From the IMG/VR virus record IMGVR_UViG_2547132415_000018: a stretch of DNA of 5,312 bases. One strand, 5' to 3'. Made by a program: the position numbers and the translations under genes. Below are positions 1 through 5,312 of the stretch, in pieces (within the stretch, counting starts at the first letter, position 1; every line of letters begins with the position of its first letter). The notes under the pieces are model-generated. The model did not search any database. It was not told the DNA's origin and worked only from the letters and a program-made list of their open reading frames with translations. Origin of the DNA: a virus. Taxonomy: Duplodnaviria > Heunggongvirae > Uroviricota > Caudoviricetes.

Positions 1-95
1 AAATCCCAGACTAAATCATCACATAACCATGACATTTTTCTGATATTCCCCGGTAACGCCAGATGTCGACTCGCTTATCTCATCCGCCCGACATG

Positions 96-124
96 TTGTA
101 CATGCAATATGTGCGGATTATTAT
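96..124 (+). promoter_or_regulatory. Candidate sigma70 promoter upstream of vgrG (-35 TTGTAC at 96-101, 17-bp spacer, -10 TATTAT at 119-124)
   Basis: Hexamers read directly from the sequence; spacing is canonical and they sit about 20 nt upstream of a GGAGG Shine-Dalgarno (135-139) and the vgrG ATG at 145. This is a pattern match only, with no transcript evidence. Confidence 0.25.
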
Positions 125-144
125 TCATTTTCACGGAGGTTGCT

Positions 145-2286
145 ATGTCAACCGGATTACGTTTCACACTTGAAGTGGACGGCCTGCCACCGGACGCGTT
201 TGCGGTGGTTTCCTTTCATCTCACCCAGTCACTCTCTTCGCTCTTTTCCCTCGATCTCTCTCTGGTCAGCCAGCAGTTTCTCTCCCTTGAATTTGCGCAG
301 GTGCTGGACAAAATGGCCTACCTGACGGTATGGCAGGGCGATGAAGTACAGCGCCGGGTGAAAGGCGTGGTGACCTGGTTTGAACTCGGGGAGAACGACA
401 AAAACCAGATGCTGTACAGCATGAAGGTGCACCCGCCGCTGTGGCGTGCCGGTCTGCGCCAGAACTTCCGTATCTTCCAGAACGAGGACATCAAAAGCAT
501 CCTCGGCACGATGTTGCAGGAAAACGGGGTGACCGAATGGAGTCCGCTGTTCAGCGAGCCGCATCCTTCCCGTGAGTTTTGTGTCCAGTACGGTGAGACT
601 GATTACGATTTCCTGTGCCGGATGGCGGCGGAGGAAGGCATCTTCTTTTATGAGGAGCATGCTTACAAAAGTACCGACCAGAGCCTGGTGCTGTGCGACA
701 CAGTCCGCCATCTGCCCGAATCTTTTGAAATCCCATGGAACCCGAACACCCGTACCGAGGTGAGCACCCTCTGCATCAGCCAGTTCCGCTACAGCGCACA
801 AATCCGCCCTTCTTCCGTGGTGACCAAAGACTACACCTTTAAACGCCCCGGCTGGGCCGGACGTTTTGAACAGGAAGGCCAGCACCAGGACTACCAGCGC
901 ACGCAGTATGAAGTGTATGACTACCCCGGACGTTTCAAGGGTGCCCACGGGCAGAACTTTGCCCGCTGGCAGATGGACGGCTGGCGAAACAATGCAGAAA
1001 CCGCGCGGGGAATGAGCCGCTCGCCGGAGATATGGCCGGGACGGCGAATTGTGCTGACGGGGCATCCGCAGGCGAACCTGAACCGGGAATGGCAGGTGGT
1101 GGCAAGTGAACTGCACGGCGAGCAGCCGCAGGCGGTGCCGGGACGCAGGGGTTCAGGAACCACGCTGGATAACCATTTTGCGGTAATACCGGCAGACAGA
1201 ACATGGCGACCACAGCCGTTGCTGAAACCGCTGGTGGACGGCCCGCAGAGCGCCGTCGTGACGGGACCGGCAGGCGAGGAAATCTTCTGTGATGAACATG
1301 GCCGCGTGCGGGTGAAATTTAACTGGGACCGTTATAACCCGTCAAACCAGGACAGTTCATGCTGGATCCGTGTGGCACAGGCGTGGGCAGGCACCGGCTT
1401 TGGTAACCTGGCGATACCGCGTGTGGGTCAGGAGGTGATTGTGGACTTCCTCAACGGCGACCCGGACCAGCCGATCATTATGGGGCGTACCTACCACCAG
1501 GAAAACCGCACCCCCGGCAGCCTGCCGGGGACGAAGACGCAGATGACGATCCGCTCGAAAACCTATAAGGGCAGCGGGTTTAATGAACTGAAGTTTGACG
1601 ATGCGACAGGGAAAGAACAGGTCTACATCCACGCGCAGAAGAACATGAACACCGAGGTGCTGAATAACCGCACCACTGATGTGATAAACAACCATGCCGA
1701 AAAAATAGGTAACAACCAGGCGATCACCGTTACCAATAACCAGATCCAGAACATTGGCGTTAATCAGATACAGACGGTTGGTGTCAACCAGGTGGAAACG
1801 GTGGGCAGTAACCAGATTATCAAAGTGGGATCAAACCAGGTTGAAAAGGTGGGGATCATTCGTGCGCTGACGGTGGGTGTGGCTTACCAGACGACGGTAG
1901 GCGGCATTATGAATACCTCGGTGGCGTTGTTGCAGTCCTCACAGGTAGGGCTGCATAAATCACTGATGGTGGGAATGGGCTACAGCGTCAATGTGGGGAA
2001 TAACGTCACCTTCTCGGTGGGCAAGACAATGAAGGAAAACACCGGACAAACAGCAGTTTATTCTGCCGGTGAGCATCTTGAACTCTGCTGTGGTAAGGCA
2101 AGGCTGGTGCTGACGAAGGACGGAAGCATATTTCTCAATGGTACGCACATTCATCTGGAAGGGGAGTCGGATGTGAACGGTGATGCGCCAGTGATTAACT
2201 GGAACTGTGGTGCCACACAACCTGTACCGGATGCGCCTGTGCCGAAAGATTTACCCCCCGGAATGCCGGATATGCGGCAATTTTGA
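145..2286 (+). CDS. vgrG: Type VI secretion system spike/tip protein VgrG (713 aa)
   Basis: ORF 109..2286 from the supplied track. I prefer the internal ATG at 145 (MSTGLRFTLEVDGL...) because GGAGG lies 5 nt upstream, whereas the 109 start adds 12 hydrophobic residues with no ribosome-binding site. The translation has the typical VgrG layout: a gp27-like N-terminal region, a central region (VKFNWDRY...GQEVIVDFLNGDPDQPIIMGRTYH), and a gp5-like beta-helix made of VxxNQ octapeptide repeats. Confidence 0.92.
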   Translation: MSTGLRFTLEVDGLPPDAFAVVSFHLTQSLSSLFSLDLSLVSQQFLSLEFAQVLDKMAYLTVWQGDEVQRRVKGVVTWFELGENDKNQMLYSMKVHPPLWRAGLRQNFRIFQNEDIKSILGTMLQENGVTEWSPLFSEPHPSREFCVQYGETDYDFLCRMAAEEGIFFYEEHAYKSTDQSLVLCDTVRHLPESFEIPWNPNTRTEVSTLCISQFRYSAQIRPSSVVTKDYTFKRPGWAGRFEQEGQHQDYQRTQYEVYDYPGRFKGAHGQNFARWQMDGWRNNAETARGMSRSPEIWPGRRIVLTGHPQANLNREWQVVASELHGEQPQAVPGRRGSGTTLDNHFAVIPADRTWRPQPLLKPLVDGPQSAVVTGPAGEEIFCDEHGRVRVKFNWDRYNPSNQDSSCWIRVAQAWAGTGFGNLAIPRVGQEVIVDFLNGDPDQPIIMGRTYHQENRTPGSLPGTKTQMTIRSKTYKGSGFNELKFDDATGKEQVYIHAQKNMNTEVLNNRTTDVINNHAEKIGNNQAITVTNNQIQNIGVNQIQTVGVNQVETVGSNQIIKVGSNQVEKVGIIRALTVGVAYQTTVGGIMNTSVALLQSSQVGLHKSLMVGMGYSVNVGNNVTFSVGKTMKENTGQTAVYSAGEHLELCCGKARLVLTKDGSIFLNGTHIHLEGESDVNGDAPVINWNCGATQPVPDAPVPKDLPPGMPDMRQF
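1708..1851 (+). repeat. Six tandem 24-bp units encoding the VgrG beta-helix octapeptide repeats (GNNQAITV, TNNQIQNI, GVNQIQTV, GVNQVETV, GSNQIIKV, GSNQVEKV)
   Basis: The 8-codon periodicity with a conserved N-Q at positions 3-4 and V/I at position 8 is visible in the translation and as a recurring AAYCAG in the DNA. This is a coding-sequence repeat inside vgrG, not an independent element. Confidence 0.7.
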
Positions 2287-2361
2287 GTCAGGTGCAAAAA
2301 ATTAAAACGGAACTGGTGCAGTGACCAGATAAACCATATTAAAAGCAGAAGGAATTGATTC

Positions 2362-2640
2362 ATGGGCGGAAAACCGGCGGCGCGGCAGGGTGATATGACC
2401 CGCAAGGGACTGGATATTGTGCAGGGTTCAGCGGGGGTGCTGATAGGTGCGCCGACGGGAGTGGCCTGTTCGGTATGTCCGGGAGGGATTACCTATGCTA
2501 ACCCGGTGAACCCGCTGCTGGGTGCGAAGGTGCTACCGGGCGAGACGGACCTTGCGCTGCCCGGCCCGCTGCCGTTTATTCTTTCCCGCGCCTACAGCAG
2601 CTACCGGACCAGAACACCCGCGCCGGTGGGGGTGTTTGGT
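2362..2640 (+). other. PAAR domain coding region at the N-terminus of the Rhs protein (approximate extent)
   Basis: A PAAR motif at residues 5-8 (KPAARQGD) followed by a Gly/Cys-rich stretch ([14 protein letters not shown]). The domain boundary is estimated by eye, not computed. Confidence 0.5.
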
Positions 2641-4542
2641 CCCGGCTGGAAAGCGCCCTTCGATATCCGCTTACAGATACGCGATGAAGGCCTGATACTC
2701 AACGACAACGGCGGCAGGAGCATTCACTTTGAGCCGCTGTTTCCCGGCGAGATAAGCTACAGCCGCAGCGAGTCACTCTGGCTGGCGCGGGGCGGGGTGG
2801 CGGAGCAGCACAGTTCGCAGCCGCTAAGCGCACTCTGGCAGGTGCTGCCGGAAGATGTTCGCCTGAGTCCGCATGTGTACCTGGCGACAAACAGCCTTAA
2901 GAGGCCGTGGTGGATACTCAGCTGGCCGGAGCGGGTGCCGGGGGCGGACGAGGTGCTGCCGCCGGAGCCGCCCGCATACCGGGTGCTGACGGGCGTGGTG
3001 GACGGCTTCGGGCGGACGCTGACTTTCCACCGGGCGGCGGAGGGTGACGTGGCGGGCGCGGTGACGGGGGTGACGGACGGCGCGGGCCGCTGTTTTCACC
3101 TGGTGCTGACCACACAGGCGCAGCGGGCGGAAGCCTTCCGTAAACAGCGCGCCACGTCTTTATCTTCCCCTGCCGGTCCCCGTTCTGCTTCCTCTTCTTC
3201 TGCTTTCCCCGACACGCTGCCCGCCGGTACAGAATACGGTGCCGATAACGGTATCCGGCTGGAGGCGGTGTGGCTGACACACGACCCGGCATACCCGGAT
3301 GAACAGCCGACTGCGCCGCTGGCGCGCTACCTCTATGACCCGCTGGGCCGCCGGACGGGAAAACGGGTATGGCGGCGGGAGCGTGACCTGACGGGGTGGA
3401 TGTCGCTGTCGCGTAAACCGGAGGAGACCTGGTACGGGTGGGACGGTGACAGGCTGACCACTGTACAGACCCAACAGACAAGAATCCAGACGGTATACCA
3501 GCCGGGAAGCTTCACGCCGCTCCTGAGAATCGAAACAGAGAATGGCGAACAGGCGAAGGCGCGGCACCGGAGCCTAGCGGAGGTGTTGCAGGAGGACACG
3601 GGGGTGACGCTTCCGGCGGAGCTGGCGGTGATGCTGGGGAGGCTGGAGCGGGAACTGCGTGCGGGAGCGGTGAGTGCGGAGAGTGAGGCATGGCTTGCGC
3701 AGTGCGGGCTGACGGTGGAGCAGATGGAAAGCCAGATGGAGGCGGAATACATCCCGGAGCGGAGGCTGCATCTTTACCACTGTGACCACCGGGGACTGCC
3801 GCAGGCGCTCATCAGCCCGGAAGGGGAAACGGCGTGGTGCGGGGAGTATGACGAGTGGGGGAACCAGCTTAATGAGGAGAACCCGCATCACCTGTACCAG
3901 CCGTACCGTTTGCCGGGGCAGCAGTATGATGAGGAGTCGGGACTGTATTACAACCGTCACCGGTACTACGATCCGTTGCAGGGGCGGTATATCACCCAGG
4001 ATCCGATAGGGTTGAAGGGGGGAATAAATCTATACACGTATCCACTGGCACCAATACGTTACACTGATCCACTGGGGTTAGAACGAGTTATAAGTGTATA
4101 TGGGCCTCCCGCTCCAGACCGGGCAGGTGCTGAAACTCCTCTTGTTCTTACTGATATGACTGGAGGAGTGACTATTTATTATGATCCTGAAACAGGTGAT
4201 TCAATGACTTTTGATAGTAGCAATAGAATTGATCGTCGTTCTCAACGTGGTGCTGGTGATCCATATACAGGTGAAGTCGTTGGTTGTGAGACAAATGAAT
4301 CAGGAATATCGGCAGCATATGGCACAACGAAGATCTATACTACAGATACTAGAGCAAGATGGCTACATGGTGGGGGATCATCGTTGCGCGATCCTTATGC
4401 TCCTCGACAAGGCTGGAAACCAACTATGGGATGTACCCGTGCACAGAATGAAGATGTAGATGAGTTGTGTAAGAAAGTGACAAGTTGGATGTATTCGCAT
4501 CCTGGAGAGAGAATTAGATATGAACGTTTTAAGACACGTTAA
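2362..4542 (+). CDS. PAAR-domain Rhs-family polymorphic toxin, 726 aa, apparently lacking most of the YD-repeat shell through an in-frame internal deletion; carries a C-terminal toxin domain
   Basis: The ATG at 2362 is preceded by GAAGGAA (2348-2354). The N-terminus ([12 protein letters not shown]...[14 protein letters not shown]...[20 protein letters not shown]) is the PAAR-containing N-terminal region typical of E. coli RhsA-like proteins. The C-terminal part (YLYDPLGRR...[14 protein letters not shown]...[45 protein letters not shown]) is the conserved end of the Rhs core. Canonical Rhs proteins are about 1400 aa, so a 726-aa protein with both ends must be missing the shell. Confidence 0.88.
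3331..4080 (+). other. Retained C-terminal part of the Rhs core (Rhs repeat-associated core region) ending in PxxxxDPxGL
   Basis: The segment begins right after the inferred deletion junction ([14 protein letters not shown]). DPIGL is encoded at 4000-4014 and the terminal [10 protein letters not shown] ends at 4080, which is where Rhs C-terminal toxin domains normally begin. Confidence 0.6.
4081..4539 (+). other. C-terminal toxin domain of the Rhs protein (residues 574-726), candidate YkuD-like L,D-transpeptidase-fold peptidoglycan-targeting toxin
   Basis: The sequence becomes AT-rich immediately after the DPLGL demarcation. Residues 667-702 read WLHGGG-x18[14 protein letters not shown], which resembles the H-G...(S/T)-x-G-C-x-R-x-x-N-x-D catalytic signature of YkuD-type L,D-transpeptidases. 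The family assignment is by eye only. Confidence 0.45.
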
Positions 4543-4738
4543 TGCGATTAACATGGGAGTGTGCATTCTAATTTTGGTTATTGGATGTGCAAATGCTAAA
4601 GTTCTTAAACGATGTATATTACCCGCTCCTGATGGTGGCGTAGAAAAACTATCAAAACCCAACTTACATGGAGTAATTAAAAAAGTTGATTTGAACACAA
4701 ATGAAGCGGAAATTAAAATAAAAGAGGGGGGGCAGTGA
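4520..4738 (+). CDS. Small predicted lipoprotein (72 aa), candidate cognate immunity protein
   Basis: The ATG at 4520 overlaps the last 23 nt of the rhs gene and is preceded by GGAGAGAG (4504-4511). The N-terminus [23 protein letters not shown] has a charged n-region, a hydrophobic core and a lipobox-like VIGC. Its position directly downstream of an Rhs toxin domain is the classic immunity-gene position. The alternative start at ATG 4553 lacks a good ribosome-binding site. Confidence 0.5.
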
Positions 4739-4911
4739 GTTTTATTTTTAATGAGGAAACATTGTATTTTACTGTTTTTGGTGGGGATTTTATTATGGAT
4801 GATTTAAAAAAAGTAAAAAATACGGAAGCATGGGTATGGTATAAAAATTGCGATAGTAAAAATAAAAATGTGGCAGTTGAACTTCTTCAAATCTACGAAT
4901 TGCATCAATGA
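4735..4911 (+). CDS. Hypothetical small protein (58 aa from GTG 4735; 38 aa if started at ATG 4795)
   Basis: The ORF is not in the supplied track because it starts with GTG. That GTG overlaps the stop of the upstream ORF (GTGA) and is preceded by the strong purine-rich AGAGGGGGGG (4722-4732). The AT-rich composition and small size make this a weak call. Confidence 0.25.
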   Translation: MSFIFNEETLYFTVFGGDFIMDDLKKVKNTEAWVWYKNCDSKNKNVAVELLQIYELHQ

Positions 4912-4951
4912 AAAATATAGTTAAATAGAGAAGGTTATTAATAGCAGGAAA

Positions 4952-4976
4952 AGCATCACGTGATGCTGATTTTTTG
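4952..4976 (+). terminator. Candidate rho-independent terminator (palindrome AGCATCAC/GTGATGCT followed by a T6 run)
   Basis: A perfect 8+8 inverted repeat at 4952-4967 is followed by GA then TTTTTT (4970-4975), downstream of the toxin, immunity and small-ORF cluster. The very short loop is a caveat; it could instead be a protein-binding palindrome. Confidence 0.4.
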
Positions 4977-5312
4977 CACTAAATAATTCGCATTTTATGT
5001 TTAAAAATTGAGATATTCCTTATTACCTAAAGCTGTTTTTTATTGCTTATACATGATCAAATACTCCTTACATAATTAAGGAGAACAAAATGGAACTTAA
5101 AAAATTGATGGAGCATATTTCTATTATCCCCGATTACAGACAAGCCTGGAAAGTGGAACATAAATTATCGGATATTCTACTGTTGACTATTTGTGCCGTT
5201 ATTTCTGGTGCAGAAGGTTGGGAAGATATAGAGGATTTTGGGGAAACACATCTCGATTTTTTGAAGCAATATGGTGATTTTGAAAATGGCATTCCTGTTC
5301 ACGATACCATTG
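4977..5312 (+). mobile_element. Probable left part of an H-repeat (ISAs1-family) insertion element; left boundary not determined
   Basis: Inferred only from the transposase gene at 5090 onward. I could not identify the terminal inverted repeat, so the start coordinate is a placeholder somewhere between 4912 and 5089. Confidence 0.3.
5090..5312 (+). CDS. ISAs1-family transposase (H-repeat-associated protein), N-terminal 74 codons only; the gene continues past the window end
   Basis: The ATG at 5090 is preceded by AAGGAG (5078-5083). The translation [74 protein letters not shown] matches, from memory, the N-terminus of E. coli H-repeat-associated proteins (YhhI/YdcC-type). There is no stop before the window edge. 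Confidence 0.85.

Follow-up and report, generated by a model that had tools for sequence, protein, structure and literature searches.

The DNA considered here, IMG/VR virus record IMGVR_UViG_2547132415_000018, is a stretch of 5,312 nucleotides (hereafter, the window) that carries a vgrG spike gene, an rhs toxin gene and an immunity gene. It is Escherichia coli DNA, namely the entire 5312-bp contig AQEI01000213.1 of draft assembly GCA_000354915.1, and it holds a known E. coli vgrG-rhs-immunity cassette belonging to a type VI secretion system (T6SS; T6SS2 or rhsG type) in a degraded state. We consider it likely that the window is the effector end of a T6SS2/rhsG locus, made up of a Tse5-class Rhs, its immunity gene and an H-repeat, and that this module was recently inactivated and is now an undeliverable remnant. 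That reading follows from three independent lesions (in the Rhs cage, the immunity gene and the T6SS machine) and from the role of the cage in Tse5 of Pseudomonas aeruginosa, whose shell acts as a chaperone that encloses the C-terminal toxin and anchors the N-terminal fragment. An earlier note made from the letters of the window (hereafter, the original prediction) had asked whether the module is still deliverable; the cage deletion, the frameshifted immunity gene and the loss of T6SS genes justify that doubt.

Lesions in the cage, the immunity gene and the secretion machine

The Rhs protein had been described as truncated. It is indeed shortened, but it is not cut at an end. Compared with the allele of STEC276, which encodes 1411 amino acids (aa), the window aligns in two blocks (positions 134-3330 and 3328-5312) between which 2055 bp are absent, an in-frame internal deletion of exactly 685 codons. 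Alignment of the protein to WP_021570009.1 covers residues 1-329 and 1006/1015-1411. The breakpoints (...GCGCGCTAC/ACGTAC... and ...GCCGGTAC/CTCTATGAC..., with the slash marking the break) share a 3-bp microhomology, TAC, which is the tyrosine codon of two YD-repeat motifs. The loss amounts to about 57% of the 1211-aa shell (aa 48-1258 of the full-length allele), and about 200 aa of shell are kept. The match to the RHS_core model NF041261 accordingly stays below the cut-off of 2000 bits and falls into two separated stretches, short of the roughly 1260 model positions of a full cocoon; the Pfam YD-shell models PF05593 and PF25023, which match full-length relatives, have no match in the 726-aa protein. 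The PAAR-like end and the DUF6531 plug survive, as do the toxin and the C-terminal plug, in which neither autoprotease aspartate has been lost. The RHS domain lies at aa 470-505 and Rhs_assc_core at aa 496-573 (PF03527, E-value 2.6e-14), and D547 and D569 align to D1141 and D1164 of Tse5, so that both the plug and the autoprotease are present.

The exact deletion junction is found in 2 of 5426 complete genomes (AR_0061 and MDK9L1) and in at least 24 independent draft contigs. Because it recurs in this way it is not an assembly error; the deletion is real and lineage-specific. Its flanks are 99.7-100% identical to full-length alleles. The cage is reportedly required for secretion, according to the title of a 2020 study by Donato and colleagues. 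An AlphaFold2 model of the whole 726-aa protein (30-sequence alignment) gave a predicted local distance difference test score (pLDDT) of 32.7 and a predicted template modelling score (pTM) of 0.22; it is uninformative on cage closure and is not used as evidence.

Cocoon collapse is recurrent in E. coli. The closest Rhs proteins comprise at least seven distinct in-frame internal deletions with the same toxin (products of 726, 736, 761, 768, 871, 536 and 719 aa) and at least five further in-frame deletions with other tips, which makes at least 12 distinct events in E. coli Rhs; their junctions lie at short common motifs (RY, GRL, EYDE, DN and TG). This survey was protein-based and would miss out-of-frame events, and the in-frame bias may reflect either selection or the deletion mechanism and ascertainment alone. 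Proteins with cocoon deletions in our set are P0193, P0194, P0196, P0197, P0208, P0214, P0215, P0236, P0269, P0278 and P0290.

The second lesion lies in the immunity gene. The original prediction took this gene to end at 4738, but the ORF concerned (4520-4738) covers only the opening half of a frameshifted gene, whose end is at 4911. The intact gene is 393 bp long and overlaps the rhs 3' end by 23 nucleotides (nt). In ML775 the region is a single 130-aa open reading frame (ORF) with a tract of eight guanines (G8), and the 130-aa form is the dominant cluster (1292 member sequences). Among 1004 complete genomes that contain the region, 184 have exactly G7, about 800 have G8 and a few have G9. 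The ancestral 130-aa product has a hydrophobic core and a lipobox (VIGC, Cys23), and the downstream 58-aa ORF has no signal sequence. A lipobox on the immunity protein fits a periplasm-facing lipoprotein paired with a periplasm-acting toxin; the predicted periplasmic target would also agree with the Rhs protein's having no translocation or transmembrane region at its N-terminus. The reconstructed 130-aa protein matches DUF4367 weakly (21.7 bits against a cut-off of 22.1), and its relatives are confined to E. coli-like sequences. Identity with Imm16 (DUF2750) or Imm57 was rejected, the DUF4367 match being all that Pfam gives. As a separate observation, STEC276 has the G7 frameshift alongside a full-length Rhs and what looks like a complete T6SS cluster, and how it avoids self-intoxication is puzzling.

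The third lesion is read from related genomes. In finished genomes, the gene order of the window closes the Rhs-bearing T6SS cluster beside the tRNA-Asp gene (the aspV locus), where tssB-C-E-F-G ... tssM lie on one strand and hcp-vgrG-rhs-immunity-ISAs1-yafV on the other; the alternative location is an orphan island between yncH and pptA (the rhsE locus). The intact cluster of STEC276 contains vasL, tssM, tssA, vasI, tssH, tssL (icmH), tssK, tssJ, tagH and tssG. In AR_0061, a deletion joins a partial vasL to a partial tssG, so that tssM, tssA, vasI, tssH, tssL, tssK, tssJ and tagH are gone, and hcp, which lies upstream of vgrG, is interrupted by a stop codon (L001, regions 4611-6066 and 11284-11802). 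The same T6SS gap is present in contigs L005-L010, which encode the exact 726-aa protein. The loss extends to every visible context of the exact Rhs allele, all of them in genomes other than that of the window. Recombinational loss of E. coli T6SS clusters is documented. The original prediction had named absence of T6SS structural genes as a finding that would speak against a working module; this is largely borne out, in that the cognate T6SS cluster lacks essential genes in the genomes with the exact Rhs allele.

A six-frame ORF listing and family scans place vgrG, the 726-aa Rhs gene, two small overlapping ORFs and an ISAs1-family transposase on the plus strand (Table 1). The guanine-plus-cytosine (GC) content is 64% in the Rhs core, but drops to 44% over the last 153 codons of rhs and to 32% in the small ORFs. 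The drop from core to extension is the classical Rhs core/extension signature, and a low-GC C-terminal toxin is followed by a cognate immunity gene that is present, if frameshifted. VgrG has matches to Phage_GPD, Phage_base_V and Gp5_trimer_C, all above the Pfam cut-offs, and thus the gp27-like, OB-fold and gp5 beta-helix parts of a spike. An alternative in-frame ATG at 109 would add 12 codons; the start at 145 is preferred because a GGAGG Shine-Dalgarno sequence lies 7 nt upstream and RefSeq uses this start. The ISAs1 transposase starts at 5090 and its frame runs off the contig end; repeat copies of the element align from 4971, whereas alignment to plasmid copies begins at about 4941. At the position after the immunity gene, ML775 carries ISAs1 twice in tandem. 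No RNA family was found in the window with Rfam, and a promoter and terminator scan of the window returned consensus-level sites only.

Table 1. Features of the 5,312-nt window (positions are those of the window).
Feature	Position	Strand	Basis or remark
Upstream intergenic DNA, rhsE-locus type (yncH-vgrG spacer)	1..144	+	vgrG Shine-Dalgarno GGAGG at 134-138
vgrG (TssI spike), 713 aa, intact, hybrid	145..2286	+	TIGR03361 624.6 bits (cut-off 186); TIGR01646 442 bits
vgrG-rhs spacer, 75 bp, no gene	2287..2361	.	rhs ribosome-binding site GAAGGA
rhs with in-frame internal deletion, 726 aa instead of 1411	2362..4542	+	NF041261 RHS_core 1135 bits
PAAR-like N-terminal fragment, aa 1-47, KPAAR at aa 4-8	2362..2502	+	PAAR_motif sub-threshold; ends at N47/P48
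DUF6531, N-terminal plug of the cocoon, aa 47-123	2500..2730	+	Pfam PF20148, E-value 1.3e-18; plug role as in Tse5
Deletion junction, TAC microhomology, hybrid YD repeat	3328..3330	+	Alignment to the 1411-aa allele
Rhs-associated core/C-terminal plug; D547 (QDPIGL), D569 (TDPLGL), cleavage motif DPLGL/E574	3847..4080	+	TIGR03696, E-value 3.3e-23
Toxin domain, aa 574-726, YkuD/L,D-peptidase fold (predicted); putative catalytic His669 and Cys691 (WLHGGG...TMGCTR)	4081..4539	+	GC 44% against 64% in the core
Immunity gene, frameshifted; 72-aa (4520-4738) and 58-aa (4735-4911) ORFs	4520..4911	+	Intact 130-aa ORF in ML775
Poly-G tract, G7, cause of the frameshift; G8 restores the frame	4726..4732	+	Comparison with the intact form
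Terminator-like hairpin AGCATCACGTGATGCT followed by a T run, 3' of the immunity stop codon	4952..4977	+	Consensus scan only
Left end of ISAs1-family element (ISEc1, the classical Rhs 'H-repeat')	4971..5312	+	Annotation in related genomes; Pfam DDE_Tnp_1_assoc

Docking of the Rhs protein and nature of the toxin

What had first drawn attention to the window was a compact T6SS effector module in which no chaperone or adaptor gene separates vgrG from rhs. Its components are borne out by the family models, and its coordinates (vgrG at 145-2286, a 75-bp spacer, rhs at 2362-4542) by the ORF listing and by RefSeq annotation of near-identical genomes, which gives identical starts and stops for both genes. 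The absence of an intervening gene likewise stands: the six-frame listing has no ORF inside the spacer (2287-2361), which only a spurious antisense ORF overlaps. The compactness, however, is nothing out of the ordinary. With a 301-bp probe, the vgrG stop, the spacer and the rhs start were found contiguous in 2059 of the 5426 complete E. coli genomes (38%), including O157:H7 EDL933. The arrangement is real, not due to chance, and very common; vgrG-rhs order without an adaptor is the norm for this Rhs class and, as the standard layout of a well-known E. coli system, it changes nothing.

Nor is an adaptor expected, since the Rhs N-terminus has no transmembrane segment for an Eag chaperone. In prePAAR Rhs proteins, Eag (DUF1795) chaperones engage hydrophobic transmembrane segments of the N-terminus, the docking site being the VgrG gp5 needle. 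The Rhs protein of the window contains no hydrophobic or transmembrane helix (maximum Kyte-Doolittle 19-aa mean 1.44), and its prePAAR motif (AARxxDxxxH) is partial only, with K in place of H. Dependence on prePAAR and Eag was rejected on these grounds, together with the lack of a full PAAR domain and of an ORF between vgrG and rhs. The E. coli literature already splits EagR-chaperoned Rhs proteins (vgrGO1-eagR-rhs islands) from chaperone-less Rhs proteins of T6SS2 type. The layout of the window agrees with that of the VgrG1c-Tse5 class of P. aeruginosa, which is free of chaperones.

The original prediction held that a PAAR domain loads the toxin directly onto this VgrG. The best model, by analogy with Tse5, does have the Rhs N-terminus dock directly on the VgrG tip, but the supposed domain is a sub-threshold stub of 47 aa. 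PAAR_motif (PF05488) scores 17.2 bits against a cut-off of 27, aligning aa 2-29 to profile positions 21-51 of 70. A full PAAR domain was rejected on that score and because only 47 aa precede the plug, compared with the roughly 70-95 aa of a cone with three PAAR-type repeats. N47/P48 aligns with the K47/P48 cleavage site of Tse5, and the start of the deposited Tse5 chain (PVNPML) corresponds to residue 48 here (PVNPLLG). Tse5's N-terminal fragment, 5 kDa in size and called 'PAAR-like' by its authors, is described as necessary for secretion, and Tse5 associates with VgrG1c.

The C-terminal toxin domain, taken alone (153 aa), matches YkuD (PF03734) at 25.1 bits, above the cut-off of 23.4 (E-value 3e-5); within the whole Rhs protein the same model scores 21.8 bits, just under it. 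An AlphaFold model of the domain (pLDDT 91.6, pTM 0.85) places it in the YkuD fold, in that the top 15 Foldseek matches are all YkuD-fold enzymes, the best being the L,D-carboxypeptidases Pgp2 and Csd6. By sequence, the domain alone matches nothing meaningful in PDB (E-values of 0.79 and above), and a family profile gives no more than a marginal YkuD match (E-value 0.02). The putative catalytic motif H669...T688-M-G-C691-T-R fits H-x(n)-[S/T]-x-G-C-x-R, with a His-Cys spacing of 21 residues, slightly above the published 14-17 plus 3.

A word-indexed homologue search for the domain returned mostly fragments, so that an exhaustive HMMER search was needed; it gave 245 cluster representatives of the toxin family. 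The domain is C-terminal in 84 of the 94 well-covered representatives, and 21 of them belong to proteins of more than 600 aa; polymorphic toxin tips typically take such a C-terminal position on long proteins. In 34 aligned sequences the domain's His96 and Cys118, which are His669 and Cys691 in the numbering of the protein, do not vary; they lie within HGGG...TxGCTRxxNxD, and the family profile aligns TxGCTRxQNxD with SKGCIRMHNKD of Bacillus subtilis YkuD. YkuD is matched by 23 of the 34 members (best E-value 8.9e-8) and DUF2778 by none; membership of DUF2778/Tlde1 (PF10908), a family that typically has a shorter His-Cys spacing, was rejected. From fold and motif we infer L,D-carboxypeptidase or exchange activity on peptidoglycan.

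The mechanism of the intact ancestor can be outlined from its homologues. The 47-aa PAAR-like N-terminus of Rhs would dock on the C-terminal beta-helix tip of the VgrG trimer, with no need for an Eag chaperone, as the protein has no transmembrane segment that would require shielding. The toxin would be held in the YD-repeat cocoon, which is closed by two plugs (DUF6531 and the aspartyl protease at the C-terminal side), and would be cleaved off after DPLGL. On firing, the toxin would enter the periplasm of a rival cell, where the YkuD-fold Cys/His L,D-peptidase would damage peptidoglycan stem peptides, most likely by L,D-carboxypeptidase/exchange activity as in Tlde1, Csd6 and Pgp2; the 130-aa outer-membrane lipoprotein would shield sibling cells. 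In the copy of the window, 685 aa were removed by microhomology-mediated in-register recombination between two YD repeats, and a slip from G8 to G7 broke the immunity gene.

The hybrid vgrG and alternative readings

The vgrG gene of the window is a hybrid. Its 5' part (about 145-1461) is an rhsE-locus allele, and its 3' part (1462-2286, encoding the gp5 needle and the tail) is identical to the aspV-locus allele. At the left end, the yncH-vgrG region of ML775 departs from positions 1-200 at 2 sites, positions 1-1000 differ at 8 sites from the rhsE locus of KE58 (99.2% identity), and positions 1-133 bear no relation to the hcp-vgrG spacer of the aspV T6SS locus. The loci compared were L004 (ML775, 10145-16966), L002 and L003 (STEC276) and L001 (AR_0061); the rhs gene of ML775 at the yncH-pptA locus is annotated as frameshifted.

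Such a hybrid could have arisen in the cell or in the assembly, and we regard the second origin as a real possibility, somewhat short of an even chance: the rhsE-locus flank and vgrG 5' part would have been joined to an aspV-locus remnant through sequence that the paralogues share, in the course of draft assembly. The window is the whole of a 5312-bp draft contig, and within the collection its exact VgrG protein is encoded on this contig only. The switch at 1461 is also sharp. Compared with the aspV deletion allele there are 79 mismatches, all within 168-1461, as against none in 1462-4930 relative to L005 and L011 (and one relative to AR_0061), and no complete genome matches positions 1-1500 at more than 98.6%. 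On the other hand, the hybrid gene is in frame and of full length, the contig is recorded in 2 samples, and real exchange between the loci does occur, in that O103 and O121 strains carry at the rhsE locus the same toxin/immunity cassette that others have at aspV. A true recombinant, formed by gene conversion between paralogous loci, is therefore plausible. Between cassette types, the 3' third of VgrG and the 5' part of Rhs have diverged in step, by about 25%, which fits tip-cargo specificity; the crossover keeps the needle and tail with the co-inherited Rhs. An assembly artefact would concern positions 1 to about 1461 only and is compatible with the explanation as a decayed remnant, the real module then being the aspV-locus remnant.

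The presence of the L,D-peptidase toxin/immunity cassette at two loci, namely the aspV T6SS locus and, in O103 and O121 strains, yncH-pptA (rhsE), shows that VgrG tip, Rhs and immunity gene move together when they are exchanged.

Several points weigh against an inactivated and undeliverable module. The deletion preserves the reading frame and spares the whole toxin, the two autoprotease aspartates, the plug and the PAAR-like end; vgrG, too, is intact. No experiment known to us rules out secretion of a cage-less Rhs of this class. In contig L010, which shares the Rhs deletion, the immunity gene is intact (G8), and sequencing errors at the homopolymer may underlie some of the G7 tracts in databases. 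The toxin's enzymatic activity is predicted from fold and motif. The window is an isolated 5312-bp contig, so that the state of the T6SS core is read from other genomes, and its left flank is of rhsE-locus type, unlike the aspV contexts in which the cluster is gutted. We nevertheless favour decay, and suggest that the intact vgrG, toxin and autoprotease frames would only reflect how recent it is.

The same observations could be taken to describe a shortened but working weapon, in which the cage-less protein uses its PAAR-like end to dock on VgrG and is launched as a tethered toxin. A peptidoglycan toxin would be harmless in the cytoplasm of its producer, so encapsulation may be unneeded, and immunity might come from the 72-aa lipoprotein fragment or from slippage over the G tract. 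This would account for an in-frame deletion that keeps every terminal functional module and for the intact vgrG; it would also agree with at least 12 other in-frame internal deletions in E. coli Rhs, seven of them with the same toxin, and with the G7, G8 and G9 variants in the population. Yet an in-frame outcome is mechanistically expected from in-register recombination between repeats, and a protein-based search misses out-of-frame events. Given the near-identity of the deletion flanks to full-length alleles, too little time has passed for any selection to be apparent; all visible contexts of the allele have a gutted cognate T6SS cluster, the N-terminal fragment of Tse5 is anchored inside the shell that is missing here, and the downstream 58-aa ORF has no signal peptide. 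We find such a working form improbable. The wider proposal that cage-less Rhs proteins of this kind are functional and tolerated for periplasm-acting toxins, with the immunity poly-G tract as a switch for self-protection, likewise commands little belief. Least credible, and very improbable indeed, is that errors of sequencing or assembly account for the deletion or the frameshift and that the genes are really intact: repeats and homopolymers are error-prone and the related contig L010 reads G8, but the identical 2055-bp junction stands in two finished genomes and many independent assemblies, and G7 is common to 184 complete genomes and nearly all assemblies of the lineage.

Read as a decaying module, the window is a clean example of how an Rhs weapon is lost, combining in-register collapse of the cocoon, a homopolymer slip in the immunity gene and deletion of the T6SS core. 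Of minor value beyond this are an uncharacterised pair of YkuD-type toxin and lipoprotein and the recurrence of in-frame cage deletions.

Comparison with known systems

The closest counterpart is the rhsG cassette of the aspV locus, with which the window shares the order of vgrG, 75-bp spacer, rhs, overlapping immunity gene and ISAs1 H-repeat. The window differs from the aspV-locus and rhsE-locus cassettes in lacking 685 aa of the core and in carrying the G7 immunity frameshift, and from the aspV-locus cassette also in that its vgrG 5' part and upstream flank are of rhsE-locus type.

As regards the toxin, the Tlde1/DUF2778 proteins of Salmonella are T6SS effectors with L,D-carboxypeptidase and exchange activity on peptidoglycan, and establish that enzymes of L,D-peptidase type act as periplasmic T6SS toxins. 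The family described here is distinct from the characterised Tlde1/DUF2778 family, has no solved or biochemically tested member, and is partnered by an unclassified lipoprotein. A further counterpart is Tox-LD-peptidase (Zhang et al. 2012), an L,D-peptidase tip (H, S, C) predicted, like the toxin of the window, on RHS-repeat and T6SS-linked toxins; its listed immunity proteins are Imm16 and Imm57, neither of which the immunity protein of the window matches in Pfam, and the two systems were compared by description.

The EagR-chaperoned prePAAR Rhs proteins (Photorhabdus Rhs1, P. protegens RhsA, Serratia Rhs and those of the E. coli vgrGO1-eagR-rhs islands) have in common with the window a cocoon mounted on the VgrG tip, a polymorphic toxin and a downstream immunity gene. 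Unlike the protein of the window, they have prePAAR and a full PAAR domain, contain at least one transmembrane segment, and need a DUF1795 chaperone whose gene lies between vgrG and rhs.

Among solved structures the best match is Tse5 (RhsP1, of the P. aeruginosa VgrG1c-Tse5 pair; PDB 8cp6, E-value 9.6e-44). The two proteins share the 47-aa PAAR-like N-terminal fragment, cleavage before PVNP, the DUF6531 plug and the aspartyl-protease plug with DPxGL; both are encoded next to vgrG, neither has a transmembrane segment, and both are assigned an action outside the target cytoplasm, a prediction in the case of the window. They part ways at the toxin and the shell, for the toxin of Tse5 is a pore-former and not a YkuD-type enzyme, and its cocoon is complete.

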